Assembly: GCA_011048995.1 (NCBI GenBank)
Contig: DSCS01000026.1
Location: 2,765 to 66,764, forward strand
From: Bacillota bacterium
GTDB taxonomy: Bacteria; Macinerneyibacteriota; Macinerneyibacteria; Macinerneyibacteriales; DSCS01
Length of the DNA stretch: 64,000 bases
Direction: 5' to 3'
In this document: positions 1,797 to 18,617 of the stretch, in pieces
Layout of the letters: each line of letters opens with the position of its first letter
Numbering within the stretch: the stretch's first letter is position 1
Position numbers and translations under genes: made by a program
The notes under the pieces: generated by a model
What the model was told of the DNA's origin: nothing
Seen by the model: only the letters and a program-made list of their open reading frames with translations
Databases searched by the model: none

Positions 1797-2906
1797 ATGA
1801 AAAAAACAACCTTAAACGAGATTCACAAGAAATCAGGCGGAAAGATGGTGGACTTTCTGGGATGGGAATTGCCTGTGCAGTATGGCAAAGGGACGATTGC
1901 CGAGCATATGGCCGTGAGAAAAAACGTGGGATTATTCGACGTTTCTCATATGGGGCAATTCGAATTTAAGGGAAATGATGCCGTCGCTCTTATTCAAAAA
2001 CTGATTACAAACAACGCTGCCAAACTGGAGACCCGGCAAGTGCTTTACAGCCCCATGTGCTATGAAAACGGAACTATTGTGGACGATGTTCTCTGTTACC
2101 GCTTAGGAGAAGACCATTTTTATATGGTCGTCAATGCTTCGAACATCGAAAAAGACTGGGACTGGGTGAAAAAAAACGCTCAGGGGGCGGATCTGGATAT
2201 TATAAAGAATTTTTCTGATGAAGTCTCCCTTTTGGCGCTACAAGGCCCGTACGCCGAAAAGACGTTGCAAAAACTTCTCAAAGAGGATCTTTCTCAATTA
2301 GGCTTTTTCTACCTGCTGCCGCAGACTCAGGTCGATGATGTGGATGTGCTCATGATATCGCGAACAGGATACACCGGAGAAGACGGCTTTGAGATCATGA
2401 CAGTGAATACCCATGCGCCGGCTTTGTGGGAAACGATCATGAAGGCCGGAGAAGAGTTCGGGATCGAGCCCTGCGGTTTGGGGGCCCGGGATACCTTGCG
2501 CTTTGAAGCAAAACTTCCTCTTTACGGAAATGATATTGATGACACGACAACTCCCGTAGAAGCGGTTTTGAAATTTTTTATTGATACTGAAAAACCTTTT
2601 TTTAACGGTAAAGAGACGATCCTCGACCAGATCAATAACGGCACAGAGCGGCTGATCCGTGGTTTTGAGATGATAGACAAGGGGATTCCCCGCCATGGCA
2701 TGGAGATCTATTCGGCTGAAGGGGAAAGAATAGGGTATGTGACCAGTGGAACCTATGCTCCTTTCCTGGAGAAAAACCTGGGCCTGGGATATATTGATAA
2801 ACCGCATCATAAACCCGGGCAGGAGATCTTTATCGATGTCAGGGGAAAAAGGAAAAAAGCGGTGATCGTCAAAACACCTTTTTATAAGAAATCCTATAAA
2901 TCATAA
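1797..2906 (+). CDS. gcvT: Glycine cleavage system T protein (aminomethyltransferase)
   Basis: 369 aa. GcvT-typical residues (HMGQFEF, RDTLRFEAKLPLYGNDID, folate-binding fold signature). Confidence 0.88.
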   Translation: MKKTTLNEIHKKSGGKMVDFLGWELPVQYGKGTIAEHMAVRKNVGLFDVSHMGQFEFKGNDAVALIQKLITNNAAKLETRQVLYSPMCYENGTIVDDVLCYRLGEDHFYMVVNASNIEKDWDWVKKNAQGADLDIIKNFSDEVSLLALQGPYAEKTLQKLLKEDLSQLGFFYLLPQTQVDDVDVLMISRTGYTGEDGFEIMTVNTHAPALWETIMKAGEEFGIEPCGLGARDTLRFEAKLPLYGNDIDDTTTPVEAVLKFFIDTEKPFFNGKETILDQINNGTERLIRGFEMIDKGIPRHGMEIYSAEGERIGYVTSGTYAPFLEKNLGLGYIDKPHHKPGQEIFIDVRGKRKKAVIVKTPFYKKSYKS

Positions 2907-2996
2907 TTCTTTGGGGGAGTGGCGTCTCCCCCATTATTTTTTCGGCATTCTATAAAAATTTCTCTTGCAATGAAAATAAAGTTGTGCTATAAAATA

Positions 2997-3023
2997 TTAG
3001 CACTCACCTTAAGTGAGTGCTAA
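2997..3023 (+). promoter_or_regulatory. CIRCE operator (HrcA binding site) upstream of groES
   Basis: TTAGCACTC-N9-GAGTGCTAA perfect inverted repeat, identical to the CIRCE consensus. hrcA is encoded in this same window. Confidence 0.9.
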
Positions 3024-3061
3024 TAGGATAAGCAAGACCTGTTATGGTGTAACGAAAGGAG

Positions 3062-3343
3062 ATGGTTATGAAAGTCATGCCTTTGGAAGAACGTGTTCTG
3101 GTGAAGGTGGAATTGACCCAGGAAAAAACGAAAAGCGGAATTTATCTGCCCGACACCGCCAAAGAAAAAACGCAGCAGGGTGAAATAGTCGAGGTGGGGA
3201 CTTCCGAGGATTTTAATAAGATGGGCATTAAAAAGGGTGTTAAGGTCATTTTCGCCAAGTATGCCGGGACAGAGATTAAAATCGACAATGAGGATTATCT
3301 GATTTTGAACAAGACAGATGTCCTTGCCAAAGTCGAGCAGTAA
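3062..3343 (+). CDS. groES: Co-chaperonin GroES (start possibly ATG 3068)
   Basis: 93 aa. MKVMPLEERVLVKV...SGIYLPD Hsp10 pattern, immediately upstream of groEL. Confidence 0.92.
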   Translation: MVMKVMPLEERVLVKVELTQEKTKSGIYLPDTAKEKTQQGEIVEVGTSEDFNKMGIKKGVKVIFAKYAGTEIKIDNEDYLILNKTDVLAKVEQ

Positions 3344-3346
3344 TAA

Positions 3347-4996
<1,650 letters not shown>

Positions 4997-5004
4997 AACC
5001 ATAA

Positions 5005-5034
5005 GGGCGGGGTTCTTCCCGCCCTTTTTTTTTC
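5005..5034 (+). terminator. Rho-independent terminator after groEL
   Basis: GGGCGGG-loop-CCCGCCC hairpin followed by a T9 run. Confidence 0.8.
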
Positions 5035-5098
5035 TTAAAATGTCTTGACCGTTCTCATCTCATCCCTTAGTATTATTTAGTAAACCGAAATATAAGGG

Positions 5099-6553
5099 GT
5101 GATGAATATGAAAAATATTGCTCAATGGGCTGTGGAAGCTATGGCAGCTGAGGGCGTAGACTACGGAGATGCCCGTTTACGCCGGACAGACCGGGAAGTC
5201 ATTATGACTCAAAACGATACCCTCCGCTTTGTTGATAATTTTACAGAGCGGGGGATCGGAGTGCGTGTCCTTGTGAAGGGACGCTGGGGATTTGTTGCGA
5301 CGCCGTTTTTGTCCAAAGAATCTGTACAACAATGCGTCTTAAAAGCCGTAGGTATCGCTAAGGCAGCGGCTGTTGTCAATCAGGAGCCGATTAAGCTGAC
5401 TCAGGATAAGGCGGCACAGGGTGTTTTTAAGACTAAGATCGAAAAGGACCCTTTTGACCTTCCCCTGGGGGAGAAGGCTGCTCTGCTGATCGCTGCTTAT
5501 GAAAAGATGGCCGCTCAAAAAGCTATTAAACGGGTGATGGGCCGCATGTATTTTCGGCGCATGCATCAGTTTTTCCTCTCGACAGAAGGTGCTGACCTGG
5601 AAAACCTTGTTTACACTTCGGCCGCGACGTATAATGCTACAGCTGTGGGACAAGGGGATTTTCAGACCCGGGGATTACCCGAATACCCGAAAAATGCCGG
5701 ATTTGAATGGATCGAATCCCAAAATATCGTAGAGAAAGCCCCGGAAGTCGCTGAGGATGTCATGAAAAAACTGGGAGCCTCCCGGGCCCCGTCCGGGAAA
5801 ACCGATCTGATCCTTATGCCGTCCCATCTTTGCCTGACCATACATGAATCAGTGGGACATCCTACCGAGCTGGACCGTGTTTTGGGATGGGAAGCCAATT
5901 TTGCGGGGACATCTTTTGCAACGCCGGAAAAAAGAAATCATTTCCAATACGGTTCCCCGTTGGTCAATTTTGTGGCGGACAATACATTAGAGGGAGGGCT
6001 GGCGACTTGGGGGAATGATGATGACGGGATCTGCGGGAAGCGTTGGCAGATCATTCAAGACGGCCTCTTAGTCAATTACGGGACGACCCGGGACACAGCC
6101 CATTATATCGGAGATACAGAAAGCATGGGCTGTAACAGGGCCGATTCCTATGCCTCTCAGCCGATCAACCGTATTCCCAATTTAAGCCTGATGGCGGGAA
6201 AAGACCCCCTGTCTCTTGATGAGCTGATCGCTGACACGGAAAAGGGGATCCTTATTGACGGTATGGGGAGTTTTTCCATCGATCAAAGGCGGTATAATTT
6301 TCAATTCGGAGGAGACATGTTTTATGAGATCAAAGGCGGTAAAATCACTCGTCCGCTGAAGGATGTCATTTATCAGGCGATTACTCCGGAATTCTGGAAC
6401 TCCTGTGATGCTATTTGTGACGAACGTTTCTGGGAGCCTTACGGAGTACTCAATTGCGGAAAGGGAGAGCCGTCACAGACCCAGCAGATGACTCATGGTT
6501 CGGCTCCGGCCCGGTTCAGAAATATTGATGTGGGAGGTGCCTTTAATGGATAA
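5099..6553 (+). CDS. tldD: TldD family metalloprotease (peptidase U62)
   Basis: 484 aa. HExxxH-like HESVGHPTELDRV motif, TldD length, paired with pmbA downstream. Confidence 0.8.
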   Translation: MMNMKNIAQWAVEAMAAEGVDYGDARLRRTDREVIMTQNDTLRFVDNFTERGIGVRVLVKGRWGFVATPFLSKESVQQCVLKAVGIAKAAAVVNQEPIKLTQDKAAQGVFKTKIEKDPFDLPLGEKAALLIAAYEKMAAQKAIKRVMGRMYFRRMHQFFLSTEGADLENLVYTSAATYNATAVGQGDFQTRGLPEYPKNAGFEWIESQNIVEKAPEVAEDVMKKLGASRAPSGKTDLILMPSHLCLTIHESVGHPTELDRVLGWEANFAGTSFATPEKRNHFQYGSPLVNFVADNTLEGGLATWGNDDDGICGKRWQIIQDGLLVNYGTTRDTAHYIGDTESMGCNRADSYASQPINRIPNLSLMAGKDPLSLDELIADTEKGILIDGMGSFSIDQRRYNFQFGGDMFYEIKGGKITRPLKDVIYQAITPEFWNSCDAICDERFWEPYGVLNCGKGEPSQTQQMTHGSAPARFRNIDVGGAFNG

Positions 6554-7844
6554 GAAGAAACGTTTTCAGGATATTGCAGAATTCATCGGAAACACGCTGA
6601 ATGCCGATGACTATGTTATCAAATACGAAAATGAGAATGAGGCTTTAACGCGATTTGCAGACAATAAAGTAACACAGAATGTGGACACATTGAAAGAAAC
6701 GGTCTCTTTGACAGCCTGGATCGACGGGAAGAAAGCGACGTTGAGCAGCGCCGACTGCAGCCGTGAAGGATTGAAAGAGCTGACCGGGAAATGTGAAAAA
6801 GCCGCCCGGGCCTCTGTTCCCGACAAAGAGTATTTACCTTCATTAAGCGATGATGGCCAGGTTATCGAACAGATGGTGGATCCCGCGGTTTTGAAAGCCG
6901 GGGCTCCCGAACGGGCAGCCATTGCCGCACGCACCATCGCCAGGGCCTCTCAAAACAAAGTCACGGCTTTTGGGACGGTCTTTCATACGCTGAATGCCAC
7001 GGGCCTGGCGACGGCTAACGGGCTTTTGAAGTATTATGAGAATACGGCGGCAGGGTACTCCAATACGGTTGACAAAAACGGAGAAAAGGGGAGTTCTTTC
7101 TCGAACGGTTATGACCTGGCCTCGATGAATCCTGAAGAGGATTTCAGCCGGGCATTGAAAGATGCCGAGCTTCTTCAGAACAGGAAAGAGTTTGACCCCG
7201 GACGCTATCCTGTTCTTCTTTCTGCCCAGGCGGCTTCCAAATTGATGATGTGGCTGGGGTTCTTCGGAGCTGACCGGCAGGCTGTGGATGAGGGCTATTC
7301 GCCTTATTCCAATAAAATGGGAGAGACTTTGGTGGACACGCGGATCTCCATCGGGACGAATCCCGCTCATCCGTCATCGCCGTCTCTTCCCTTTGATTCT
7401 GCAGGATTGGCTGTAGAGGACAGAAAGATCATCGATAAAGGTGTCTTAACCGATATTCCCTGCTCACGATTCTGGGCTTCACAAAAGGGGTATGAGCCCT
7501 GGAGTGCTACGAATGTCGTCATAAGCGACGGGACAAAAACGGAAGAAGAGCTTCTGTCCTCTTTGGACCGGGGTTTTTACATCAAAGACCTCTGGTATAT
7601 CCGGATGGTCCGCATGGAAGACTTTACTTTGACGGGAATGACACGGAACGGGTTCTTTTATGTGGAAGACGGGAAAATCGTCACGGGGGCTACTCATTTC
7701 CGTTGGAATGATTCTCCTCTGAGAATGCTGAACAATATCCTCGGACTGGGGAAAGGCTCAGGGTTTGTAGACTCATGGTTTTCAGTTTTTACGCCGTCTC
7801 TCCTTATCCGTGATTTCTATTTAAGCAGTAAGACACTGTTTTAA
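6546..7844 (+). CDS. pmbA: PmbA/TldE family peptidase U62 partner. Start taken at ATG 6546 (RBS GGAGGT), overlapping the tldD stop in ATGGATAA
   Basis: About 433 aa. U62 family C-terminal region, translationally coupled to tldD. Confidence 0.72.
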   Translation: MDKKKRFQDIAEFIGNTLNADDYVIKYENENEALTRFADNKVTQNVDTLKETVSLTAWIDGKKATLSSADCSREGLKELTGKCEKAARASVPDKEYLPSLSDDGQVIEQMVDPAVLKAGAPERAAIAARTIARASQNKVTAFGTVFHTLNATGLATANGLLKYYENTAAGYSNTVDKNGEKGSSFSNGYDLASMNPEEDFSRALKDAELLQNRKEFDPGRYPVLLSAQAASKLMMWLGFFGADRQAVDEGYSPYSNKMGETLVDTRISIGTNPAHPSSPSLPFDSAGLAVEDRKIIDKGVLTDIPCSRFWASQKGYEPWSATNVVISDGTKTEEELLSSLDRGFYIKDLWYIRMVRMEDFTLTGMTRNGFFYVEDGKIVTGATHFRWNDSPLRMLNNILGLGKGSGFVDSWFSVFTPSLLIRDFYLSSKTLF

Positions 7845-7852
7845 AGAGGAAA

Positions 7853-7880
7853 GGCTGCAGTAACCGCTGCAGCCTTTTTC
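7853..7880 (+). terminator. Rho-independent terminator after pmbA
   Basis: GGCTGCAG-TAACCG-CTGCAGCC hairpin plus T5. Confidence 0.75.
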
Positions 7881-8013
7881 CCGCTTATAAGGCCTTTTAA
7901 CCGGAAGATCCCATGACCGGAAGGGTTTTTTCAATGAAATGTAAGGGTTTTCTCTTGTCAAACGCTCTCAGCATGTTATTTTTAGACTGCAATTGAGTGA
8001 AAGGAGTTGATTT

Positions 8014-8640
8014 ATGAAACGACAGCTTCCCGTCATTATTACATTTATCTTCGCTGTCATCGGGATTATTTTACAGCTCTCTCCTGTGATGCAGGACAAA
8101 TTTATCGATCCCGTTAACAGCTGGATTGCCTCGATCTCGTCTTTTGCCGTGATTATCGGCCTGGCCAGCCTGGTCAGGCATCACACCACAAAGATCAGGC
8201 GGAAGCATAAAGATCAGTTTTTCAGTTTTGTTACCTTTACGGCTTTAGTGGTGATGGCCACTGTCTCGATTGTCGGGTACTATCATCCGGGTTCGATTTG
8301 GAAAGTTTTCGCCGATAACCTTTACCGACACATCATGGTCCCGTTGAATGCGACAATGTTCGCTTTGCTGGCTTTTTATATTTCTTCAGCCGCTTACCGG
8401 GCTTTCCGCGCCAGGACTTGGCTGGCCGGGACATTGCTCGTATCCGGGTTTATCGTCATGCTGGGCCGTGTCGCTTTCGGGCCTTTGATGATCGCCGCGG
8501 AAATCACAAATTGGCTTATGCTGATCCCCAATACGGCTGCCATGAGAGGGATCATGATCGGTGTGGGATTGGGGATGGTGGCGACAGCCATTAAGATCAT
8601 GCTGGGTATCGAGCGCTCCTATCTGGGAGGTGGTGAATAA
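8014..8640 (+). CDS. Cassette A gene 1: polytopic membrane protein (about 6 TM), unknown function. Conserved KIRRKHKD loop and ERSYLGGGE C-terminus
   Basis: Hydrophobic segments. Paralog at 11687-12310 with a highly conserved C-terminal half (SAAYRAFRARTWLA, MGRVAFGP, IERSYLGGGE). Confidence 0.8.
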   Translation: MKRQLPVIITFIFAVIGIILQLSPVMQDKFIDPVNSWIASISSFAVIIGLASLVRHHTTKIRRKHKDQFFSFVTFTALVVMATVSIVGYYHPGSIWKVFADNLYRHIMVPLNATMFALLAFYISSAAYRAFRARTWLAGTLLVSGFIVMLGRVAFGPLMIAAEITNWLMLIPNTAAMRGIMIGVGLGMVATAIKIMLGIERSYLGGGE

Positions 8641-9638
8641 TGAGAAAGAATAAGAATGCCTGGTATGAAAAGCTTCTGGCTATTCCCAAACCTGTGATCT
8701 ATGTCATCATGTTTTTTGTCGTGGCACTGCCGGTTCTCTTTAAGATGCAGATCAGCACCTATGTCACAACAGAAGTCCAGCTGATTTATGATCATATGGA
8801 AGAACTTTACCGGTATAACCTTGAAAATCCTGATGAAAAAAAAGCCGTTTTTATTGCTTTTGATTATGACCCGTCTACTATGGCGGAATTGGATCCTATG
8901 GCTTTCGCCACCCTGCGGCACGCTTTTTTGAGGGATATTCCCGTTCTCGGCTGGTCGGGACTGCCCACAGGGGTGGATTTAGGAGAGCAAAACATGCATC
9001 TGATCGCTAAAGAGTACGGAGCCGTTTACGGCGAAGATTATGTTTTTCTGGGGTACGGGTATCCCTTTGTCCAGGCGATTATCGCTTTAGCTACAGATGT
9101 GAAGACTTTTTTTGCCAGTGACAAAGCGGGAAATAATACCCGTGATCTTCCTTTGCTGGGAGAGATCTATAATTTTAACCGCATCGGGTTGGTCTTTACC
9201 ATGTCCGGAACCTCCTACCCCGAGTCCTGGGTGACGTATGCCAACGGGCTTTACGGGAAAAAAGTCATAACAGGCTCCACAGCGGTTTCTGCAGCCAAAT
9301 ATTACCCTTTTTTGCAAACGGAGCAGATGTCCGGGCTTATGGGGGGATTAAAAGGGGCTGCCGAATATGAGCAGCTTGTGGAAAACCTGGAAAAGGAGAT
9401 TCACGGGAAAGACGTCAAAACCTATTTGGAGAATCTCTACCGGGACAAAGACCTCAGCCGGTATGATTCTTCCAATTATAAGACAGGGTTTACTCCTGAT
9501 GAGATCCAACTGAGTGTGGCCCGGAGAAGTACGGCCCGGCAGGGCATGGCTCCTCAGGCGACAGCTCATTTTTATGTAATCCTTTTAATAATTATCGGTA
9601 ATATCGCCTATTTCGCCCGTATGCGGAATAGTAAATGA
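8640..9638 (+). CDS. Cassette A gene 2: bitopic protein with N- and C-terminal TM helices flanking a roughly 280-aa soluble domain, unknown function
   Basis: Start ATG overlaps the gene 1 stop (TAATG). Paralog at 12310-13305 (conserved LRHAFLR.IPV, AKEYGAVYGED.VF.GY.YP, YPFLQT.QM.G.MGGL.GAAEYE.LV). Confidence 0.8.
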   Translation: MRKNKNAWYEKLLAIPKPVIYVIMFFVVALPVLFKMQISTYVTTEVQLIYDHMEELYRYNLENPDEKKAVFIAFDYDPSTMAELDPMAFATLRHAFLRDIPVLGWSGLPTGVDLGEQNMHLIAKEYGAVYGEDYVFLGYGYPFVQAIIALATDVKTFFASDKAGNNTRDLPLLGEIYNFNRIGLVFTMSGTSYPESWVTYANGLYGKKVITGSTAVSAAKYYPFLQTEQMSGLMGGLKGAAEYEQLVENLEKEIHGKDVKTYLENLYRDKDLSRYDSSNYKTGFTPDEIQLSVARRSTARQGMAPQATAHFYVILLIIIGNIAYFARMRNSK

Positions 9639-9651
9639 CAGGAGGGGAATT

Positions 9652-10368
9652 ATGGGTACATTGATTTGGATGACCATTGCATTATTTCTGACCTTAGCTG
9701 TCTTTTCCTTCCTTTTCAGAGATAATGTCCTTTATAAATTTGCAGAGCATCTTTTTGTAGGTGTCTCTGTGGGCTATACAGTGTATGTCAGCTATACGAA
9801 TCTCTTTTTGCCGAGAGTCTGGAACCCCTTGCGCCGGGCGATCGGCGACGGGAATATACTCCTGGCGCTGTGGCTGGCCCTGGGTGTTCTTGTGGGAATC
9901 CTTTATTTCTCCCGCTTTACCCAAAACTGGAACTGGGTGAGCCGCTATCCCATCAGCATCACTGTCGGCTATTTAACGGGCTACTCGATCATCCCCAGCC
10001 TGAAGGCTCGTATTTTGAGTCAGTTTTACGGGACAGTGGTGGACCCGGCCGGCGATTCGCTTCTGAACGCCGAAAAAATCGGGGTCTTTTTTAAGGAACC
10101 CACTTTGCATAATTTTTTCTTTGAAGCCATGGCCGGACCGCTCCTGGTGTTTGGGGTCTTTGTGGTCATTGTCTACTTTTTCTTTTCTTTTAAGAATACG
10201 AACCCCGTGGTCCGTTTTTCACGGAATCCGGCGCTGGTTTATCTGATGGTGGCCTTCGGCGCTTCGTTCGGCTATACCTTCATGGGGCGTATCAGCCTTT
10301 TTATCGGACGGATGAATTTTATTTTCCATGAATGGTGGCCGATTTTTAAGAATATGATCAGCGGATAG
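9652..10368 (+). CDS. Cassette A gene 3: polytopic membrane protein (about 6 TM), unknown function
   Basis: RBS GGAGGG upstream. Paralog at 13315-14022 (conserved KFAEHLFVG, RYPISITVG, GRISLFIGRMNFIF.EWWP). Confidence 0.8.
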   Translation: MGTLIWMTIALFLTLAVFSFLFRDNVLYKFAEHLFVGVSVGYTVYVSYTNLFLPRVWNPLRRAIGDGNILLALWLALGVLVGILYFSRFTQNWNWVSRYPISITVGYLTGYSIIPSLKARILSQFYGTVVDPAGDSLLNAEKIGVFFKEPTLHNFFFEAMAGPLLVFGVFVVIVYFFFSFKNTNPVVRFSRNPALVYLMVAFGASFGYTFMGRISLFIGRMNFIFHEWWPIFKNMISG

Positions 10369-10380
10369 AAGGGAGTGACA

Positions 10381-11520
10381 ATGAAAACGAAAAAAATAAT
10401 GATTATTCTTTGGGCCCTTCTTTTCTGTCTGCCTGTCGCTGCAGAAGAGAGGGCTCCTCTAGCTAATTTTGAATTAAAAGATACGCCGAACAATGCCGGA
10501 GAGCAGGTCGAGTTCCTTTTTGTACCGGCAGCCTCTCCTGAAGAAGTCCCGGAGTTTCTGCTTCATATCGCTATCGGCGATGAGCCTGTCAAAGAGCGGC
10601 GGTTAGTGAACGCCGGCAAAGAGATCTTTCTCCCTCTGATCACCGGCGAAGCAGGGGTTCCGGTGGAAGTCCGTGTTGAAGCTGTCATGGATGACGGTTC
10701 TTTGAAAAACTTAGGGACATCTTCCCTTGTCAGCCGCGGAGAATGGCTGAATATGAACTCCATGAAGGCCTTTATCCTGGGGCTTCTCTTTATTGCCCTG
10801 ATTATCTTTTATGTGGGCCGGGCGAAAAAAGGCAAAGATCTTTTCATCAGGAAGATCCCGGGACTGGAGGCTATTGATGACGCTTTGGGACGGGCCACAG
10901 AAATGGGACGCCCGGTCTTCTATGTGCCCGGAACATCAAGTATGGCTGATGTGGCCACGCTGGCTTCTTTGAATATTCTGCGACCGGTAGCCCGTCAGGT
11001 GGCCAAATATGAGACGCCCTTTTCTGTCCCTGTCAAGGACCCTATTGTGGTCTCTGTAGCTCAGGATGTGGTCAAAGAAGCCTATATGGCCGCCGGCCGC
11101 CCTGATCTCTACGATGACGGAATCGCCTATCTGGCTTCTATGGGACAGTTCGACTATTCGGGAGCTGTGAGCGGTTCTATGATGCGTGAAAAGCCGGCCA
11201 CGGTTTTTCTTTTGGGGATGTTTTATGCCGAATCACTGATTTTGGCTGAAACGGCTAACAGCGTCGGGGCGATTCAGATCGCCGGGACCGATGCCTCATC
11301 CCAGCTGCCCTTTTTCATCGCAGCCTGTGATTATACGCTGATCGGAGAAGAGCTTTATGCTGCTTCTGCCTACATGAGTCGTGAACCGCTCCTTTTGGGA
11401 ACATTAAAAGCACAGGATATTCTCAAAGGGCTTCTTCTTTTGCTCTTTGTCACGGCGATTATTTTTCAGCTTTTCGGTATTGATTTCGTCATGGACACTT
11501 TTTTAAAACCCGAATGGTGA
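10381..11520 (+). CDS. Cassette A gene 4: signal peptide, then a variable exported domain of about 100 aa, then TM, then a conserved domain of about 230 aa, then a C-terminal TM. Unknown function
   Basis: N-terminal MKTKKIMIILWALLFCLPVAAEE signal-like sequence. The C-terminal domain is over 80% identical to its paralog at 14025-15170, but the N-terminal exported domain is highly diverged. Confidence 0.8.
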   Translation: MKTKKIMIILWALLFCLPVAAEERAPLANFELKDTPNNAGEQVEFLFVPAASPEEVPEFLLHIAIGDEPVKERRLVNAGKEIFLPLITGEAGVPVEVRVEAVMDDGSLKNLGTSSLVSRGEWLNMNSMKAFILGLLFIALIIFYVGRAKKGKDLFIRKIPGLEAIDDALGRATEMGRPVFYVPGTSSMADVATLASLNILRPVARQVAKYETPFSVPVKDPIVVSVAQDVVKEAYMAAGRPDLYDDGIAYLASMGQFDYSGAVSGSMMREKPATVFLLGMFYAESLILAETANSVGAIQIAGTDASSQLPFFIAACDYTLIGEELYAASAYMSREPLLLGTLKAQDILKGLLLLLFVTAIIFQLFGIDFVMDTFLKPEW

Positions 11521-11526
11521 TTTCGC

Positions 11527-11565
11527 AGGGGTGCTTCCGGCGCCCCTTTATTTCTTTTCGTTTTT
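11527..11565 (+). terminator. Rho-independent terminator between cassette A and cassette B
   Basis: AGGGGTGC-TTCCG-GCGCCCCT hairpin followed by a T-rich tract. Confidence 0.7.
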
Positions 11566-11686
11566 CACAACAAAATAAATCCGCAAGCGTATAAGAAAAG
11601 GACGTTTTTTAGTATTGCGGACAAAAAGAAAGTAGAGTATCTTTTTTTTAGACCTTATGATCATTTAAACGGAAGGAGTTAACCCT

Positions 11687-12310
11687 ATGAAGAGAACCCT
11701 GCCTCTTGCTTTGGCCTTCATCTTCGGTCTTATCGGGATCGCCGTTCAGATCGTGCCTGCTTTGAAGGGATTCCTGAATACGATGCTGGACTGGATGGCC
11801 ATTATCGGGTCTTTTGCCCTGGCTTTGGGTGTTTCCAGCCTTACCCGCCATCATATGACAAAGATCCGGCGGAAGCACAAAGACATGTTTTTCAGTTACG
11901 TGACCTTTGTCACGATGCTTTTTATGATGATTATCGGCCTTATCGGCTACTTTCAGCCGGAAAGCCTCTATCAGAGGCTTTTCGGAAATATGTACAATTA
12001 TGTACGTGTCCCCCTGGACGCCAGTATGTTTGCCTTATTGGCCTTTTTTATTACTTCAGCGGCGTATCGTGCCTTCCGGGCCCGCACTTGGCTGGCCACG
12101 GTTTTGCTGGTGGCCGGAGTCGTGGTGATGATGGGCCGGGTAGCCTTCGGCCCCTTTATGATCTTTAATGATATTACGGCCTGGCTGATGAAAGTTCCTA
12201 CGACAGCCGCCATGCGGGGGTTGACGATCGGAATCGGTTTGGGAATCGTGGCCACATCTATCAAGATCGTTCTCGGTATTGAGCGCTCTTATCTGGGAGG
12301 GGGAGAATAA
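11687..12310 (+). CDS. Cassette B gene 1 (paralog of 8014-8640), polytopic membrane protein
   Basis: 207 aa. Same C-terminal ERSYLGGGE and KIRRKHKD loop as its paralog. Confidence 0.8.
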   Translation: MKRTLPLALAFIFGLIGIAVQIVPALKGFLNTMLDWMAIIGSFALALGVSSLTRHHMTKIRRKHKDMFFSYVTFVTMLFMMIIGLIGYFQPESLYQRLFGNMYNYVRVPLDASMFALLAFFITSAAYRAFRARTWLATVLLVAGVVVMMGRVAFGPFMIFNDITAWLMKVPTTAAMRGLTIGIGLGIVATSIKIVLGIERSYLGGGE

Positions 12311-13305
12311 TGAAAACACCCTGGTATGAGAAGATCGCCTCCGTTGATAAAAAGATCCTTTATGTGATCATGTTTGTCGTGGTGATGATCCCGCTTCTGG
12401 CCAAATGGACCTATAACCCTGATGTTATGGACGAAGTACAGGACATTTACGATGAGGTCGAGGAGATCTATGCCTATAATCTTGCCAATCCTGATGCTCC
12501 CATGGGGATACTCTTCTCTTTTGATTACGGACCCTCGACAAGTGCTGAGCTTGACCCCATGATGATGAGTGTCCTGCGCCACGCTTTTTTAAGGAAGATC
12601 CCTGTAGTGACTTGGGTCGCCTTTGTGGACAGCATCGATCTGGGGAAAAGAATCACCAACTTTATTGCGAAAGAATACGGCGCTGTCTACGGCGAAGATT
12701 TTGTCTTCATGGGCTATCCTTATCCTATGACGGCGGCCGTCGTGGCTTTTGGAAGTGATGTGCGTAAATTTCTGGTAAAAGATTTTTACGGCAATGTCAG
12801 CACGGATCTGCCGCTATTGAATAAGATCTATAATTACAAAAGTATCGGATTGATTGTGACCGTTTCCGGCACGTCCATGCCCCGGTTCTGGGTGACCTAT
12901 GCCAACACCCTTTATGGCAAAAAGATCGCCACAGGGACGACGGCAGTTTCTGCCGCGGACTTTTACCCCTTTTTGCAGACCAAACAGATGATCGGCATGA
13001 TGGGGGGGCTTCGCGGGGCTGCTGAGTATGAGAAGCTGGTCTATGAATTGGAAACCGAACTTATCGGAACTGACACAGAGATGTATATGCAGAGTGTCTA
13101 TAAACAAAATACGGTACAAAAGTGGGATACCAAAGTCTTTACGCCCGGCTATACGGAAGAAGAATTGCGCGAGCATATCTCTACCCGTATGACAGCCCGC
13201 ACGGGGATGGCCTCTCAGGCTGCAGCTCACTTTTTTGTCATATTTTTGATTATTTTGGCCAACCTCGGCTACTTTTTTAAACGCCGGGCCGAAAACAAGA
13301 GGTAG
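12310..13305 (+). CDS. Cassette B gene 2 (paralog of 8640-9638)
   Basis: 331 aa. Same TAATG start/stop overlap as copy A. Confidence 0.8.
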   Translation: MKTPWYEKIASVDKKILYVIMFVVVMIPLLAKWTYNPDVMDEVQDIYDEVEEIYAYNLANPDAPMGILFSFDYGPSTSAELDPMMMSVLRHAFLRKIPVVTWVAFVDSIDLGKRITNFIAKEYGAVYGEDFVFMGYPYPMTAAVVAFGSDVRKFLVKDFYGNVSTDLPLLNKIYNYKSIGLIVTVSGTSMPRFWVTYANTLYGKKIATGTTAVSAADFYPFLQTKQMIGMMGGLRGAAEYEKLVYELETELIGTDTEMYMQSVYKQNTVQKWDTKVFTPGYTEEELREHISTRMTARTGMASQAAAHFFVIFLIILANLGYFFKRRAENKR

Positions 13306-13314
13306 GAGGTCCTT

Positions 13315-14022
13315 ATGTTATTCTGGTATACTGTCGCGGTATTATTAAGTCTTGCCATCTTCTCCTTCCTCTGGAAGGATAATCCCCTCTATAAATTTGC
13401 TGAGCATCTTTTTGTCGGGACCATGGTGGGATATACGATCGTCATGGTCTTTTCACAGATTATCATGAGAAAGATCGTAGACCCTATTACGCTTGCCGTG
13501 CATAATCATCAATATCTTAACCTGATCTCTCTGATTATTGCCACATTGATCGGGCTTCTTTATCTCTCCCGTTTTTCACAGAAGGCCCAATGGGTTAGCC
13601 GTTATCCCATCTCCATCACCGTAGGGTTTTGGAGCGGATATGCCATTGTCACATCATTTAAAACCAATATCCTCACCCAGGTGCGCGGGACAGTAGTGGA
13701 TGATATGGGAGCTCCTCTGTTGAATGGAGAGCTTTTGGGTGATTTCATTAAAAGCCCCTCCTGGTCATCTTTGGATCTGGCTGTTTCAGGCCCGCTTCTG
13801 GTCTTTGGTGTCATCGTCGTCTTGATCTACTTCTTTTTTTCCATAAAGAATGAGAATCCCATGGTCAGATTTGCCAATAAGCCGGCGCTTCTCTATCTGA
13901 TGCTGGGTTTCGGGGCTTCTTTCGGCTATACTTTTATGGGCCGTATCAGCCTCTTTATCGGGCGGATGAATTTTATTTTTAATGAGTGGTGGCCGCTCTT
14001 AAAACAGACCATAGGAGGATAA
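13315..14022 (+). CDS. Cassette B gene 3 (paralog of 9652-10368), polytopic membrane protein
   Basis: 235 aa, GGAGG RBS. Confidence 0.8.
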   Translation: MLFWYTVAVLLSLAIFSFLWKDNPLYKFAEHLFVGTMVGYTIVMVFSQIIMRKIVDPITLAVHNHQYLNLISLIIATLIGLLYLSRFSQKAQWVSRYPISITVGFWSGYAIVTSFKTNILTQVRGTVVDDMGAPLLNGELLGDFIKSPSWSSLDLAVSGPLLVFGVIVVLIYFFFSIKNENPMVRFANKPALLYLMLGFGASFGYTFMGRISLFIGRMNFIFNEWWPLLKQTIGG

Positions 14023-14024
14023 GG

Positions 14025-15170
14025 ATGAAAAAAATACTTTTTTTAGCTCTTGTCGTACTCGTGAGCCTGTCATTCGCGGCTGCGGTGAAAGCCGAAGAGG
14101 AGCGTCCCCTTTACGGATGTGAATTGAATCTTTATGATACACCCAATGACGACGGAATCTCTGTTGAGCTGGAGTTTATGCCTTTAAGCTCTCCCGATGA
14201 GGTCCCCCAATACGGCATTGACCTTTATGTGGACGGGGTTTTTATGAATACTTTGACCGTTGTCAATGCCCAGGCCCTTTTTATATACACGGTACCCACC
14301 GATAAAAGGGGAGCGGAAGTTCGGGCTGAAGTCTTTGCGTATGATGCAGAAGGGACGCGTCAGGGGCCTGTTCAAGTCGAAAAAGCTATCTCCACGGCCC
14401 AATGGTACTATTCTGACCGCATTGGCGCCTTTATCTGGTCGATGCTCTTTATCGGACTGATTATGATTTTGATCGGTAAAGCCAAAAAGGGACAGGATAT
14501 CTTTATCCGCCGTATTGCCGGATTGGAAGCCATTGACGATGCCGTAGGCCGTGCCACGGAGATGGGGCGCCCTGTTTTCTATATTCCCGGGACATCCATC
14601 ATCGATGATATTGCCACATTGGCTTCGCTGAATATTCTGCGACCTGTGGCTCAGCAGGTCGCTACCTATGAGACGCCTTTTTCCGTGCCTATAAAAGACC
14701 CTGTGGTGCTGACGGTGGCCCAGGATATCGTCAAAGAAGCCTATATGGCGGCCGGCCGGGCTGACCTTCATGATGAAGGAATGGTCTATTTGGCGTCTGT
14801 AGGCCAGTTTGACTATGCCGCCGCCGTAAACGGAGCCATGGTGCGCGAAAAACCGGCAACAGTTTTTTTGCTGGGGATGTTTTGGGCCGAATCTTTGATG
14901 CTGGCTGAAACAGCCAACACGGTAGGAGCCATTCAGATCGCCGGAACCGATGCGACTTCTCAGCTGCCTTTTTTTATTGCTGCCTGTGACTACACCCTCA
15001 TCGGAGAAGAACTTTATGCCGCATCAGCCTATATGAGCCGTGAACCTTTACTTTTAGGGACGCTGAAAGCCCAGGATATGATCAAGGGAGCTGTTATTTT
15101 CGCTATGCTTCTTTCCCTGGTCTTTATGCTTTTCGGCATCGATTCTGTGATGAATTTCTTTTTTCAGTAA
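14025..15170 (+). CDS. Cassette B gene 4 (paralog of 10381-11520). Start set at ATG 14025 (MKKILFLALVVLVSLSFAAAVKA signal peptide), not the 13986 ORF-track start that overlaps gene 3
   Basis: 381 aa with signal peptide. Conserved C-terminal domain, divergent exported N-terminal domain. Confidence 0.78.
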   Translation: MKKILFLALVVLVSLSFAAAVKAEEERPLYGCELNLYDTPNDDGISVELEFMPLSSPDEVPQYGIDLYVDGVFMNTLTVVNAQALFIYTVPTDKRGAEVRAEVFAYDAEGTRQGPVQVEKAISTAQWYYSDRIGAFIWSMLFIGLIMILIGKAKKGQDIFIRRIAGLEAIDDAVGRATEMGRPVFYIPGTSIIDDIATLASLNILRPVAQQVATYETPFSVPIKDPVVLTVAQDIVKEAYMAAGRADLHDEGMVYLASVGQFDYAAAVNGAMVREKPATVFLLGMFWAESLMLAETANTVGAIQIAGTDATSQLPFFIAACDYTLIGEELYAASAYMSREPLLLGTLKAQDMIKGAVIFAMLLSLVFMLFGIDSVMNFFFQ

Positions 15171-15177
15171 TCTTCAT

Positions 15178-15207
15178 ATGGGGGAGGAGAGCGCTCTCTT
15201 CCCCCAT
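15178..15207. promoter_or_regulatory. Near-perfect 30-bp GC-rich palindrome (ATGGGGGAGGAGAGCGC|GCTCTCTTCCCCCAT) between cassette B and trkH. It is either a terminator hairpin lacking a T-tract or a dimeric regulator operator
   Basis: Read directly. One mismatch between the arms. Confidence 0.5.
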
Positions 15208-15213
15208 AATTCC

Positions 15214-15241
15214 TTGACAATCCCCCGATAAAATATATACT
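15214..15241 (+). promoter_or_regulatory. Putative trkH promoter TTGACA-16-TATACT, ending about 10 nt before the ATG, which implies a very short or absent leader
   Basis: Consensus match. Confidence 0.35.
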
Positions 15242-15250
15242 TCACTCCAT

Positions 15251-16963
15251 ATGAATAAGGATCGTCTTATTAATCTTTTAGATACTTTTCTCTTCACCGG
15301 GACTGTGGTGGCTGTTATCTCTTTTTTTGCCCATTACGGTTTTTTTGTAAACCCCGAACTTCTGACAATCATACGAAAGGGCGCTTTTATCCTGACAGGG
15401 ATCCTTGTCTTTGATAATATTTTGATGCTATTTTTGAATGCCTTTCCCGGAGAAGCCTTTCGGAAACATCGTTTTCTTTATCTGGTGACATTGCTGCTTC
15501 TTATTCATTTCCTTTTCACATTTATCGGCGTTTATGGCGGAAATCCGGATGCGCGGCTTTTTTATTATTTTACAGCGGCTCAGATCTATATTTTCTTTAT
15601 GTTCATCATTAAGCTGACAAAGATCAACCGGATGGTTTTCCCGGGAATCAACTGGCGTCCCGAACAGCTTTTTATCCTTTCATTTTTGGGGGTCATTGTT
15701 CTCGGGACTCTTTTTCTGTCATTTCCCCGGGCTACTGTAGCTGAAGGGGCGATGCCTTTGATTGATGCCTTTTTCACTTCGACTTCAGCTGTTTGTGTCA
15801 CAGGGTTGATCGTCGTGGATACGGCTGTTTATTTTACACGATTCGGCCAGTTTATTATTCTGGCGCTGATTCAGATCGGGGGATTGGGTTTGATGACATT
15901 CACGTCCTTTTTCACGATCTTCTTTTTTAAGACGATGAGCTTTAAAGAGCGCTTTTTGATGAGTGATGTGTTGAGCACGGATTATATCGGTAATGTTCAT
16001 AAGATCATCGGGAAAATATTGATTATCACCTTCACCATTGAAACCGCCGGAGCACTGCTTCTGTTTATGTCCTGGCAGGATAAGTTTAACTCTCTGGGGG
16101 AAACAGTTTTTCACTCTGTTTTTCATGCCGTCTCATCTTTTTGTAATGCCGGTTTTTCGACGTTTAGCAACAGTCTTATGAGCTTCCGGGGAGATGCCGC
16201 TGTGAATCTTATTGTGATCGTCCTTATTATTCTGGGCGGTTTGGGGTTTCTAGTCCTCATGGATTTTTTTCAGCCGCTGGACCGACGGCGGCGCATGCTT
16301 ATGGTACAGACAAAGTTAGTTTTGACCACATCGGCGCTTTTAATCCTCATCGGTACGGTGGTCTTTTTCCTTGTGGAAAACGGCAACACTCTGCAGGGAA
16401 TGAGTATTGGAGAAAAAATATTAGCTTCCCTTTTTCAATCGGTTACCCCACGGACAGCCGGTTTTAATACTGTAGATATCGGGCTTCTCTCCCTTCCCAT
16501 GCTGATGATCTTTACGATGTTCATGTTTATCGGAGCCTCTCCGGGCTCAACCGGAGGAGGAATTAAAACGACGACGTTCGGTATCTTGATTATGACAGTA
16601 TGGTCTTATTTGAAAAACAGAGACCAGGTCAGCCTTTTTAAACGTCGTATTCCTTCGCGTATCGTTTACAGGGCTATGTCTCTGGTCGTTGTCTCCATTG
16701 CGTATCTCTTTATGGCTTATCTGTTCCTTGTTGTCAGTGAAGACATCTCAATGATCGATGCTTTTTTTGAATTGGTTTCAGCTTTCGGAACGGTAGGACT
16801 TTCAACAGGGGTGACCCCTTATCTTTCCACAGCCGGGAAAATAACGATTATGCTTACAATGTTTGTGGGGCGCCTGGGGCCGATGACATTGGCCCTGGCC
16901 CTAAGCCGGGGCGAAAAAGCGGTTGTGACTTATCCTGAAGAGACCAGTATCATGGTCGGTTAG
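15251..16963 (+). CDS. trkH: Trk/Ktr-family K+ uptake membrane subunit (TrkH-like) with an N-terminal membrane extension of about 90 aa
   Basis: 570 aa, multiple TM. Selectivity-filter-like GLG motifs and the GGGIKTTT signature typical of TrkH/KtrB. Confidence 0.85.
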   Translation: MNKDRLINLLDTFLFTGTVVAVISFFAHYGFFVNPELLTIIRKGAFILTGILVFDNILMLFLNAFPGEAFRKHRFLYLVTLLLLIHFLFTFIGVYGGNPDARLFYYFTAAQIYIFFMFIIKLTKINRMVFPGINWRPEQLFILSFLGVIVLGTLFLSFPRATVAEGAMPLIDAFFTSTSAVCVTGLIVVDTAVYFTRFGQFIILALIQIGGLGLMTFTSFFTIFFFKTMSFKERFLMSDVLSTDYIGNVHKIIGKILIITFTIETAGALLLFMSWQDKFNSLGETVFHSVFHAVSSFCNAGFSTFSNSLMSFRGDAAVNLIVIVLIILGGLGFLVLMDFFQPLDRRRRMLMVQTKLVLTTSALLILIGTVVFFLVENGNTLQGMSIGEKILASLFQSVTPRTAGFNTVDIGLLSLPMLMIFTMFMFIGASPGSTGGGIKTTTFGILIMTVWSYLKNRDQVSLFKRRIPSRIVYRAMSLVVVSIAYLFMAYLFLVVSEDISMIDAFFELVSAFGTVGLSTGVTPYLSTAGKITIMLTMFVGRLGPMTLALALSRGEKAVVTYPEETSIMVG

Positions 16964-16971
16964 GAGTATTT

Positions 16972-17640
16972 ATGGCAAAAGGAAAATATCTGGTCATTGG
17001 ATTGGGGCGTTTCGGGATGGCCCTTTTGGACACCCTTTTAGAAGGGAATGCCGAGGTCCTTGTCTTTGATAATGACGAAGAGATGATCAATCAGGTCAAG
17101 GGAAAGATCGCCAATGCCGTGATTTTGGATGCGACCAATGAAGAAGCCCTTAAGAAATTCCCCTTGGAGGAGATCGATGCGGCCATTGTTACCATGGGAG
17201 ACGATTTTGAGAAGAATCTTCTGACAACTGTGATCCTCAAAGAGATGGGAGTCAAAAAGGTTGTTTCCCGTGCTTCGGCAGCCATTGAGGAAAAGATCCT
17301 GAAAAAAGTCGGAGCCGATATGATTGTTTTCCCTGAAGTGGAGATGGGCCGAAAACTGGCGAATACGCTTTTGCGCAAAAGCGTGAAAGAGGCTATCCCC
17401 CTGACAGACGGAAACTCCATCGTTCATTTTAAAGCCCCGGCCTATTTAGTCGGGAAAACATTGAAAGAAACAGAGCTGAGAGAAAAATACTCCATCAATC
17501 TTGTGGCCGTTAAAAAAAACGACGCTGAAGAAGAGATCACGGTCATTCCTGATTCTGATTATATCATTTTGGAAGAGGACACGTTGATCATTGTGGGGGA
17601 TAACAACAATATCGACCGGTTTTCGAAGGAGCGGTTGTGA
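16972..17640 (+). CDS. trkA: TrkA/KtrA K+ uptake regulatory subunit (RCK: TrkA-N plus TrkA-C)
   Basis: 222 aa. Rossmann motif IGLGRFG. Confidence 0.85.
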   Translation: MAKGKYLVIGLGRFGMALLDTLLEGNAEVLVFDNDEEMINQVKGKIANAVILDATNEEALKKFPLEEIDAAIVTMGDDFEKNLLTTVILKEMGVKKVVSRASAAIEEKILKKVGADMIVFPEVEMGRKLANTLLRKSVKEAIPLTDGNSIVHFKAPAYLVGKTLKETELREKYSINLVAVKKNDAEEEITVIPDSDYIILEEDTLIIVGDNNNIDRFSKERL

Positions 17641-18617
17641 AAAAGATACTCCTGATAACAACAGGAGGAACCATTGCCATGCAGGTCGATCAGAAAAGGG
17701 GCGGGGCTGTTCCTTTACTGAAAGCGGAAGATTTTGCCCGTTATCTCCCCCCGGTCAAGGATTTGGCGGATGTGGATATCCATATGTTTTCAAATATCCC
17801 CAGCCCTTACATGAATGTTCCTTTATGGCTGCAGTTAACGGATTTTATCGATGAGAAGCTGGCTGACGGCTATGACGGGGCCGTCATCACTCATGGGACG
17901 GATACCCTGGAAGAGACTGCTTTTTTTGTGGAATTGACTGTTAAAAGCGACAAACCTATTGTCTTTACCGCAGCTATGCGGACACTGGATGAGTTAAGCG
18001 GTGACGGCCCCCGAAATATCTGGGGAGCCCTGAAAACAGTCGTTTCGAAAAATTATACACCGGATATCGGTGTTACTTTGGCCCTGAATGATGAGATCCA
18101 CGCTGTGAGAGATGTGACAAAAACCTATACATCAAATGTGGCTACGTTCCGCTCTCCGCTTTTCGGCCCTCTGGGGTTGGTCGACAATGACCAGGTCACC
18201 TTTTATTATAAGCCTTATCAGCGTATTAAGATTTCCAGCCGTCAAATAGAGGAAAAAGTAGCTTTGATAAAAGCCTATGCCGGAATGAGCTCCGATCTTA
18301 TTGATGCGGCGGTCTCCATGGGCTATAAGGGGCTGGTCATTGAAGCTTTCGGACGGGGGAATCTTCCTGATTGGATCGTTCCGTCTATCAAGCGGGCCAT
18401 TGAAAAAGGGGTGGCCGTCGTTATCTCCTCCCGATGCTATATGGGACGTGTTTTCGGGGATTACGCCTATGGCGGGGGCGGAAAGCATTTAGGCCAAATC
18501 GGAGCGATTTTTGCGTATGACCTCAGAGGTATTAAAGCCCGGATCCTTCTGATGTTGGCATTGGGTAAGTACGACGGGGACCGGGAAGCTGTCCGGCGCC
18601 TTTTTGACACTTTATAG
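17637..18617 (+). CDS. ansA: L-asparaginase (type I), GTG start overlapping the trkA stop
   Basis: TGGTIAM, HGTDTLEETAFF asparaginase/glutaminase signatures. Confidence 0.85.
   Translation: MKKILLITTGGTIAMQVDQKRGGAVPLLKAEDFARYLPPVKDLADVDIHMFSNIPSPYMNVPLWLQLTDFIDEKLADGYDGAVITHGTDTLEETAFFVELTVKSDKPIVFTAAMRTLDELSGDGPRNIWGALKTVVSKNYTPDIGVTLALNDEIHAVRDVTKTYTSNVATFRSPLFGPLGLVDNDQVTFYYKPYQRIKISSRQIEEKVALIKAYAGMSSDLIDAAVSMGYKGLVIEAFGRGNLPDWIVPSIKRAIEKGVAVVISSRCYMGRVFGDYAYGGGGKHLGQIGAIFAYDLRGIKARILLMLALGKYDGDREAVRRLFDTL

Follow-up and report, generated by a model that had tools for sequence, protein, structure and literature searches.

Uneven divergence between the DUF6754 proteins of two tandem membrane operons: domain-specific constraint as the probable cause

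The question raised by this locus is why two neighbouring copies of one gene are nearly identical in one part and far apart in another. The genes lie in a 64,000-nucleotide (nt) stretch of contig DSCS01000026.1 (GenBank assembly GCA_011048995.1), which is called the window below. Two tandem paralogous four-gene operons, A (g1a–g4a, 8014-11520) and B (g1b–g4b, 11687-15170), occupy positions 8014-15170 of its + strand. Their fourth genes, g4a and g4b, encode proteins with an N-terminal domain related to fibronectin type III (FN3) domains and a core that matches Pfam family DUF6754. We consider it likely (probability about 0.85) that the operons are two ancient tandem copies and that the mosaic divergence of g4 stems from domain-specific purifying selection, as a property of the whole family. 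A reading of the sequence alone (the sequence-only reading) had drawn attention to the mosaic and had proposed diversifying selection on a grafted exported module, or gene conversion restricted to the 3' region.

Domains of the g4 proteins

The two genes were divided into the following parts, with lengths in amino acids (aa).

10381..11520, + strand: g4a, whole gene (open reading frame, ORF)
10381..10446, + strand: g4a predicted signal peptide, aa 1-22 (from sequence: hydrophobic helix aa 3-15, then low-confidence AAEE)
10447..10746, + strand: g4a exported FN3-like beta-sandwich, aa 23-122, the fast-evolving part (seven strands in the AlphaFold2 model, Foldseek, profile)
10747..10830, + strand: g4a first membrane helix and RAKKGK stop-transfer flank, aa 123-150 (modelled helix aa 125-149)
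10831..11385, + strand: g4a DUF6754 alpha/beta core, aa 151-335 (Pfam PF20539, E 1e-110; six beta-alpha units)
11386..11520, + strand: g4a second membrane helix, short tail and stop codon, aa 336-379 (modelled helix aa 336-364)
14025..15170, + strand: g4b, whole gene (ORF)
14025..14099, + strand: g4b signal peptide, aa 1-25
14100..14399, + strand: g4b exported N-domain, aa 26-125 (homology to the g4a FN3 domain, BLASTP E 3e-12)
14400..14483, + strand: g4b first membrane helix, aa 126-153 (alignment to g4a)
14484..15038, + strand: g4b DUF6754 core, aa 154-338 (Pfam E 3e-108)
15039..15170, + strand: g4b second membrane helix, tail and stop codon (alignment to g4a)

The start of g4b was placed at ATG 14025 and not at GTG 13986, where the longest ORF begins, because the orthologues are called at 381 or 376 aa and the database protein P0007 has 381 aa. 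Here and below, P-numbers denote database proteins and L-numbers (L001 etc.) are labels of the homologous loci or contigs that were compared.

In a codon alignment (MAFFT), the FN3 regions of g4a and g4b are identical at 30 of 100 residues and the cores at 153 of 185 (83%; Fisher p 1.3e-18). The sharp difference in identity between domains seen in the sequence-only reading is therefore real; its degree had been overstated. The C-terminal 230 aa, put at over 80% identity, reach 77.5%, since identity in the C-terminal membrane helix and tail is only about 54%; higher values are found for aa 150-346 (83.8%) and aa 272-346 (94.7%). The long identical runs that had been quoted are present in both copies, the longest being one of 40 residues that ends in KAQD (SQLPFFIAACDYTLIGEELYAASAYMSREPLLLGTLKAQD). 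The N-domains had been called unalignable, but a BLASTP alignment of the whole proteins covers their full length with 3 gap positions, and the N-domains by themselves are matched with E 3e-12 (28% identity).

The C-terminal 255 aa of both proteins match DUF6754 (PF20539), with E values of 1e-110 for g4a and 3e-108 for g4b and scores of 369 and 361 bits against a gathering threshold of 27 bits; the matches cover profile positions 2-257 of 257. A model of g4a was calculated with AlphaFold2 from a 118-sequence alignment and has a mean predicted local distance difference test score (pLDDT) of 86. From the N-terminus, a signal-peptide helix is followed by a seven-strand sandwich (aa 28-117, pLDDT 85-91) and a membrane helix (aa 125-149); six beta-alpha units then make up an alpha/beta domain (aa 162-333), and a further membrane helix spans aa 336-364. 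The positive charges that follow the first helix (RAKKGK) and precede the second imply a cytoplasmic core and an exported FN3 domain, if the positive-inside rule holds.

Searches of the PDB with the g4a sandwich (Foldseek) returned FN3 domains with a probability of 1.00 and a template-modelling score normalized to the target (target TM-score) of up to 0.74, and the family profile reaches the FN3 domains of titin (E 1.4e-10). Neither g4 protein of the window matches Pfam fn3 (PF00041) at E 0.1 or better (hmmscan), weak hits being confined to some relatives. A profile of the g4b clade (nine sequences, members and close outgroups) reached no FN3 entry of the PDB; judged by its homology to g4a, the g4b N-domain probably has the same fold. 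Conservation within the FN3 domain is limited to a juxtamembrane Trp and a DxPNDxG motif that lies between predicted strands one and two. The core has invariant acidic, Arg and Cys residues, several of which lie just past strand ends on inspection of the strand positions in the model. No meaningful solved relative of the core was found by sequence, profile and Foldseek searches of the PDB. The core may be a catalytic, ligand-binding or partner-docking domain, and the FN3 domain, which keeps only DxPNDxG, may act as a periplasmic spacer or adaptor.

The resemblance to described families is partial. Both g4 proteins match the full DUF6754 profile, and their relatives carry the annotation DUF6754 or 'fibronectin type III domain-containing protein', but this Pfam entry describes one domain only and the partners g1–g3 have no Pfam family. 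Like other bacterial FN3 or Ig-like ectodomains, that of g4a is a seven-strand sandwich (Foldseek target TM-score 0.6-0.74 to human fibronectin FN3-11 and others), but the window proteins miss Pfam fn3 at E 0.1 and carry the family-specific DxPNDxG. Sensor kinases and chemoreceptors are receptor-like bitopic proteins in which a variable ectodomain is joined to a conserved cytoplasmic module. By analogy, g4 is fast-evolving outside and conserved inside, with an ectodomain of widely variable length; it differs in that its core lies between two membrane helices and is encoded with three further membrane proteins (in about 70 of 80 loci).

Selection, conversion and descent

The proposed sliding-window calculation of the ratio of nonsynonymous to synonymous divergence (dN/dS or omega) was performed on the g4 pair by the Nei–Gojobori method, and synonymous divergence was saturated all along the gene. 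The sole unsaturated comparison is with contig L087, whose DNA is 96.5% identical to that of the window and whose synonymous sites are therefore still informative. Against L087, the two cores have 42 synonymous and no nonsynonymous changes (28/0 in g4a and 14/0 in g4b), whereas the FN3 domains of both copies have 13.5 synonymous and 10.5 nonsynonymous changes, a pooled ratio of nonsynonymous to synonymous proportions (pN/pS) of 0.24 (core versus FN3, Fisher p 9e-6). Taken singly, the FN3 domains give 0.64 for g4a (six changes) and 0.16 for g4b, and the whole genes have omega values of 0.03-0.06. In orthologue comparisons where it was computable, omega of the FN3 domain is 0.10-0.14.

The same contrast is found at greater distances. 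The orthologues of the two genes in L081 share 65 and 62% of FN3 residues and 95 and 95% of core residues with the window, and those in L082 share 37 and 49% and 88 and 91%, respectively. Across phyla (Poribacteria, WOR-3, Latescibacteria and Fermentibacteria) the core is 61-69% identical and the FN3 domain 10-28%, and 12 paralogue pairs in other loci have FN3 identities of 29-56% and core identities of 58-95%. Alignment columns have an entropy of 0.86 bits in the core, against 2.56 bits in the FN3 domain. Since the mosaic recurs in orthologues and in the paralogues of other phyla, it reflects a family-wide difference in constraint and is not peculiar to this pair. The sequence-only reading was right in seeing a variable extracytoplasmic module on a constrained core, and this holds throughout the family.

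On the explanation we prefer, the four-gene operon would encode a self-contained complex of the cytoplasmic membrane. Its subunit 4 would comprise a signal peptide, a periplasmic FN3 domain, a membrane helix, the cytoplasmic DUF6754 alpha/beta domain and a second membrane helix. The core would tolerate almost no amino-acid change (omega about 0-0.03), the FN3 domain, signal peptide and membrane helices would be loosely constrained (omega about 0.1-0.6), and long drift since the duplication would have brought the FN3 domains to 30% identity. The mosaic would then be an ordinary outcome of domain-specific constraint that needs neither gene conversion nor an arms race.

The alternative that survives best, which we nevertheless regard as unlikely, is that diversifying selection has parted the FN3 ectodomains, so that they recognize different or changing periplasmic or surface ligands. 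It is favoured by the position of the amino-acid changes from L087, all but one of which (9 of 10) fall in the signal peptide or FN3 domain, and by the omega of 0.64 in the g4a FN3 domain, far above that of the rest of the gene. It is also favoured by extra g4 genes with differing FN3 domains and near-identical cores in L006, L021, L042 and L078, and by ectodomain lengths of about 60 to more than 1000 aa across the family. Together these points suggest that the ectodomain is the part that confers specificity. Diversifying selection itself is not demonstrated: the pooled value of 0.24, the g4b value of 0.16, the orthologue values of 0.10-0.14 and those of recent paralogue pairs (0.34-0.42) never exceed 1. 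Entropy within the FN3 domain is equal in strands (2.59 bits) and loops (2.52 bits), so that there is no hypervariable binding surface. Diversity-generating retroelements use template/variable repeat pairs; none were found in 7800-15300, and there is no reverse transcriptase among the neighbouring genes.

Several points weigh against domain-specific purifying selection as the full account. The g4a FN3 domain has four nonsynonymous and two synonymous differences from L087 (the omega of 0.64 given above), and positive selection may act at a few FN3 sites, although nothing measured requires it. Every comparison deeper than L087 is saturated at synonymous sites, so that omega is unreliable there. 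The fold was modelled for g4a only and that of the g4b N-domain rests on homology, any account of why the core is so extremely constrained is itself tentative, and an ATPase gene trio that accompanies the module in other lineages (see below) was not found in the 64-kb window.

Much less probable is gene conversion between the tandem copies, in which the core (3') would be homogenized and the 5' region spared. The duplicated tuf genes of enterobacteria undergo such concerted evolution of paralogues by gene conversion, and the window likewise has tandem paralogues with one very similar region; here, however, the similarity is in protein only and the synonymous sites are saturated. In stretches of g4 with 97-100% amino-acid identity the proportion of synonymous differences (pS) is 0.69-0.86, and codons 316-345, which encode the same amino acids in both copies (100% identity), have a third-position identity of 0.43 and a pS of 0.86. 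The fraction of identical codons among conserved amino acids is 0.3-0.6 over most of g4, with two 20-codon windows at about 0.75 and 0.88, and codons ~211-255 have a somewhat lower synonymous divergence (dS, about 0.9), which counts in favour of conversion. The best DNA tracts shared by operons A and B are 71-77% identical, with none above 77%. Differences between the window and L087 are not biased towards the base of the paralogue (16, 12 and 10 sites for g4a; 14, 18 and 18 for g4b). A neighbour-joining tree of core sequences separates the a-type and b-type copies into two clades, each with several lineages (reciprocal monophyly over at least three to four), and the a-to-b core identity is constant at 79-83% in all three genomes tested. 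Saturated synonymous sites, even where the protein is 100% identical, together with the separate clades and the shared synteny, refute conversion for the window pair. In L081, L082 and L087, three related contigs, both operons are flanked by tldD/pmbA and trkH, and this shared position and the separate clades make the duplication ancient.

The mechanism does operate elsewhere in the family, where core-restricted homogenization or a recent chimera occurs in L021 (Fermentibacteria). Its g4 genes at 9899-11056 and 16944-17999, of which one is module-borne and one solo, have a core dS of 0.38, with nucleotide identity of up to 97%, and an FN3 dS of 1.5; identity climbs at about codon 150 and drops past about codon 350. 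A weaker form of the same homogenization is found between L006:8726-9793 and L006:9935-11023. L021 serves as a positive control, by which the window pair lacks the conversion signal.

We give equally little credence to domain shuffling, in which one copy took a foreign N-domain after the duplication, although ectodomain length and content do vary greatly across the family. Homology between the two N-domains extends from end to end (E 3e-12), and both have the DxPNDxG motif. Each is closest to its own orthologues (FN3 identity a to a 35-65%, b to b 39-65% and a to b 22-30%), so that FN3 identities track the core tree and the grafting that had been suggested has not happened since the duplication. 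The least probable account, that one copy is a decaying pseudogene or relaxed duplicate, is refuted by two intact ORFs with DUF6754 matches of E ~1e-110 and 3e-108, by purifying selection in orthologue comparisons (no nonsynonymous core changes from L087 in either copy, whole-gene omega 0.03-0.06) and by retention of both copies in L081, L082 and L087.

The four-gene module in other lineages

Homologues of g4 occur in at least 593 species-level genomes, which belong mostly to candidate phyla and are almost all metagenome-assembled. The range includes WOR-3, Poribacteria, Fermentibacteria, Zixibacteria, Eisenbacteria, Cloacimonadota, Ignavibacteriales, Stahlbacteria, Edwardsbacteria and anammox Planctomycetota; Latescibacteria are also present among the database homologues. 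With the core only as query, 1.84 billion cluster representatives were searched and gave 1948 clusters at E 1e-3 or better, with lengths of 289 to 1276 aa. Among the 150 cluster representatives listed, the core lies about 30 residues from the C-terminus in 149 and the N-terminal ectodomain ranges from about 60 to more than 1000 residues. The long N-terminal regions (250 to more than 1000 aa; P0303 at L088:6001-9819, P0272, P0243 and P0248) contain no Pfam domain, and two of the four long ectodomains inspected open with a signal peptide and an FN3 domain bearing the motif DVPNDDG.

In about 70 of 80 loci g4 adjoins g1, g2 and g3, usually in the order g4-g1-g2-g3. The window lineage has the cyclic permutation g1-g2-g3-g4, as do L001-L003, L031, L081, L082 and L087; in the window order, the promoter precedes g1 and the terminator follows g4. 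Tandem double and triple sets recur (L012, L013, L019, L029, L045, L057, L074 and L077). Extra g4 genes without g1–g3 of their own, solo or doubled, were observed in L006, L021, L042, L078 and L072, with cores 84-95% and FN3 domains 39-56% identical, which suggests alternative g4 subunits that share one g1–g3 set. L088 has a second g3-like gene after g3.

In at least eight loci from several phyla, three genes lie directly 5' of g4-g1-g2-g3. Their products are a small protein (about 110-130 aa), a member of Pfam family PF13941 ('MutL') with about 600 aa and a soluble protein of about 375 aa. The second is an actin-fold ATPase of the hydantoinase branch (PF13941, E 6e-128) that is 60-72% identical across lineages, and the third gave weak barrel-sandwich-hybrid matches; PDB sequence and profile searches with these two proteins found nothing. 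Examples of the trio are as follows.

L084:6735-9990: trio
L088:1553-5978: trio
L041, L045, L055, L063, L067, L075 and 19 or more of L089-L168: trio

In 80 metagenome loci seeded with the ATPase, the genes for the ATPase, the 375-aa protein and g4 follow one another directly in 19 of the 47 that have enough downstream sequence. Several further loci have the module beside the trio in another arrangement, so that about half of the loci with enough flank are linked. The ATPase would thus work with the module in other lineages, and since no components are more conserved than this protein and the g4 core, both of them cytoplasmic, a direct partnership is plausible.

In 28 loci, the two nearest ORFs on either flank of the module were surveyed for a recurrent partner, and none was found (124 families among 110 proteins). 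Searches for anti-phage defence and phage families (PADLOC and PHROGs) gave just two marginal matches (E 0.002-0.009). Pfam and NCBIfam scans of the window proteins found no kinase, HAMP, MA or other signalling domain. A literature search found no paper on DUF6754, PF20539, PF13941 or Mcinerneyibacterium, and the four-gene module, its tandem multiplication and its ATPase link are described in no paper found.

A widespread four-gene membrane module that is repeatedly found in tandem, with three of its four proteins outside any family and a partial link to an ATPase, deserves notice in its own right, and a core so constrained in sequence points to an unrecognized core activity in the cell envelope of these phyla. 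We offer only tentatively, as a possibility that we rate somewhat below even, the proposal that g4-g1-g2-g3 is an undescribed envelope machine of the FCB and PVC groups and allied candidate phyla, with DUF6754 as its working or docking core, often coupled to the ATPase trio and fitted with an exchangeable specificity ectodomain. If true, this would account for the tandem sets, for solo g4 copies and for ectodomains of 60 to more than 1000 aa.

Operon layout, subunits g1–g3 and flanks

The remaining features of the two operons are listed below.

7955..7982, + strand: promoter of operon A, sigma-70-like (TTGTCA, 16 nt spacer, TATTTT with TG; consensus scan)
8014..8640, + strand: g1a, 208-aa polytopic membrane protein (ORF; about six hydrophobic segments by inspection)
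8640..9638, + strand: g2a, 332 aa (AlphaFold2 model: N-terminal membrane helix, alpha/beta domain, long C-terminal helix including a membrane span)
9652..10368, + strand: g3a, 238-aa polytopic membrane protein (ORF)
11527..11556, + strand: intrinsic terminator of operon A (9-bp GC-rich stem, then T-run)
11687..12310, + strand: g1b, paralogue of g1a, 60% identity (ORF)
12310..13305, + strand: g2b, paralogue of g2a, 53% identity (ORF)
13315..14022, + strand: g3b, paralogue of g3a, 57% identity (ORF)
15177..15208, + strand: GC-rich palindrome 3' of g4b (inverted repeat I1, 95% complementary)

Genes 1–3 had been described as uniformly diverged at about 60%. Their averages (60, 53 and 57% identity) are close to this, but identity per 25-codon block ranges from 16 to 96% and its heterogeneity is significant (p 1e-5, 3e-3 and 3e-5 for g1, g2 and g3). 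In the same loci, cross-phylum identity is about 41-45% for g1, 36-40% for g3 and 30-35% for g2. The g2a model (AlphaFold2; pLDDT 95.3, predicted TM-score 0.91) has an alpha/beta domain between two membrane helices, which the positive-inside rule would place in the periplasm, and has no meaningful fold match in the PDB (TM-score at or below 0.41). The same rule gave an ambiguous topology for g3. No Pfam, NCBIfam or PDB relative of g1–g3 was found, scans of 71-77 family members one by one giving only membrane-protein noise. Profile–profile comparison of the four subunits revealed no relationship, and a paralogous origin of g1 and g3 or of g2 and g4 was undetectable. The g2 protein of the window lineage has 332 aa, about 55 more than that of most other phyla (about 276 aa). 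The additional segment (9360-9500, aa ~245-290 of g2a; 13030-13170 in g2b) precedes the C-terminal helix and is the part least conserved between the paralogues (20% identity).

The promoter and terminator of operon A and the palindrome after g4b, which is probably the end of operon B, indicate that the operons are two separate transcription units. The promoter hexamers and 5' leader of operon A are kept in L087 and L081 and the spacer upstream is not; a GC-rich stem is found at the aligned terminator position in L087, L081 and L082, with a clear T-run only in the window and L087. A near-perfect sigma-70-like site (15214-15241; TTGACA, 16 nt spacer, TATACT; 11 of 12 matches) stands just 5' of trkH, so that the trk genes are probably transcribed apart from operon B. 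The flanks hold ordinary housekeeping genes, with groES/EL and tldD/pmbA upstream and trkH/trkA and asparaginase downstream.

The g4a protein is identical to a database protein from a bin labelled 'Firmicutes bacterium' (locus tags ENN72_03550 and ENN72_03570). The closest named relatives of the window proteins belong to Candidatus Mcinerneyibacterium, so this label is probably wrong. Divergence of L087 from the window is very uneven: 72 differences occur in the 300 nt 5' of the operon A promoter (7701-8000), where the spacer is replaced, 32 per 300 nt at the start of trkH (15201-15800) and 0-10 per 300 nt across most of 2901-10100. This unevenness suggests recombination among strains.

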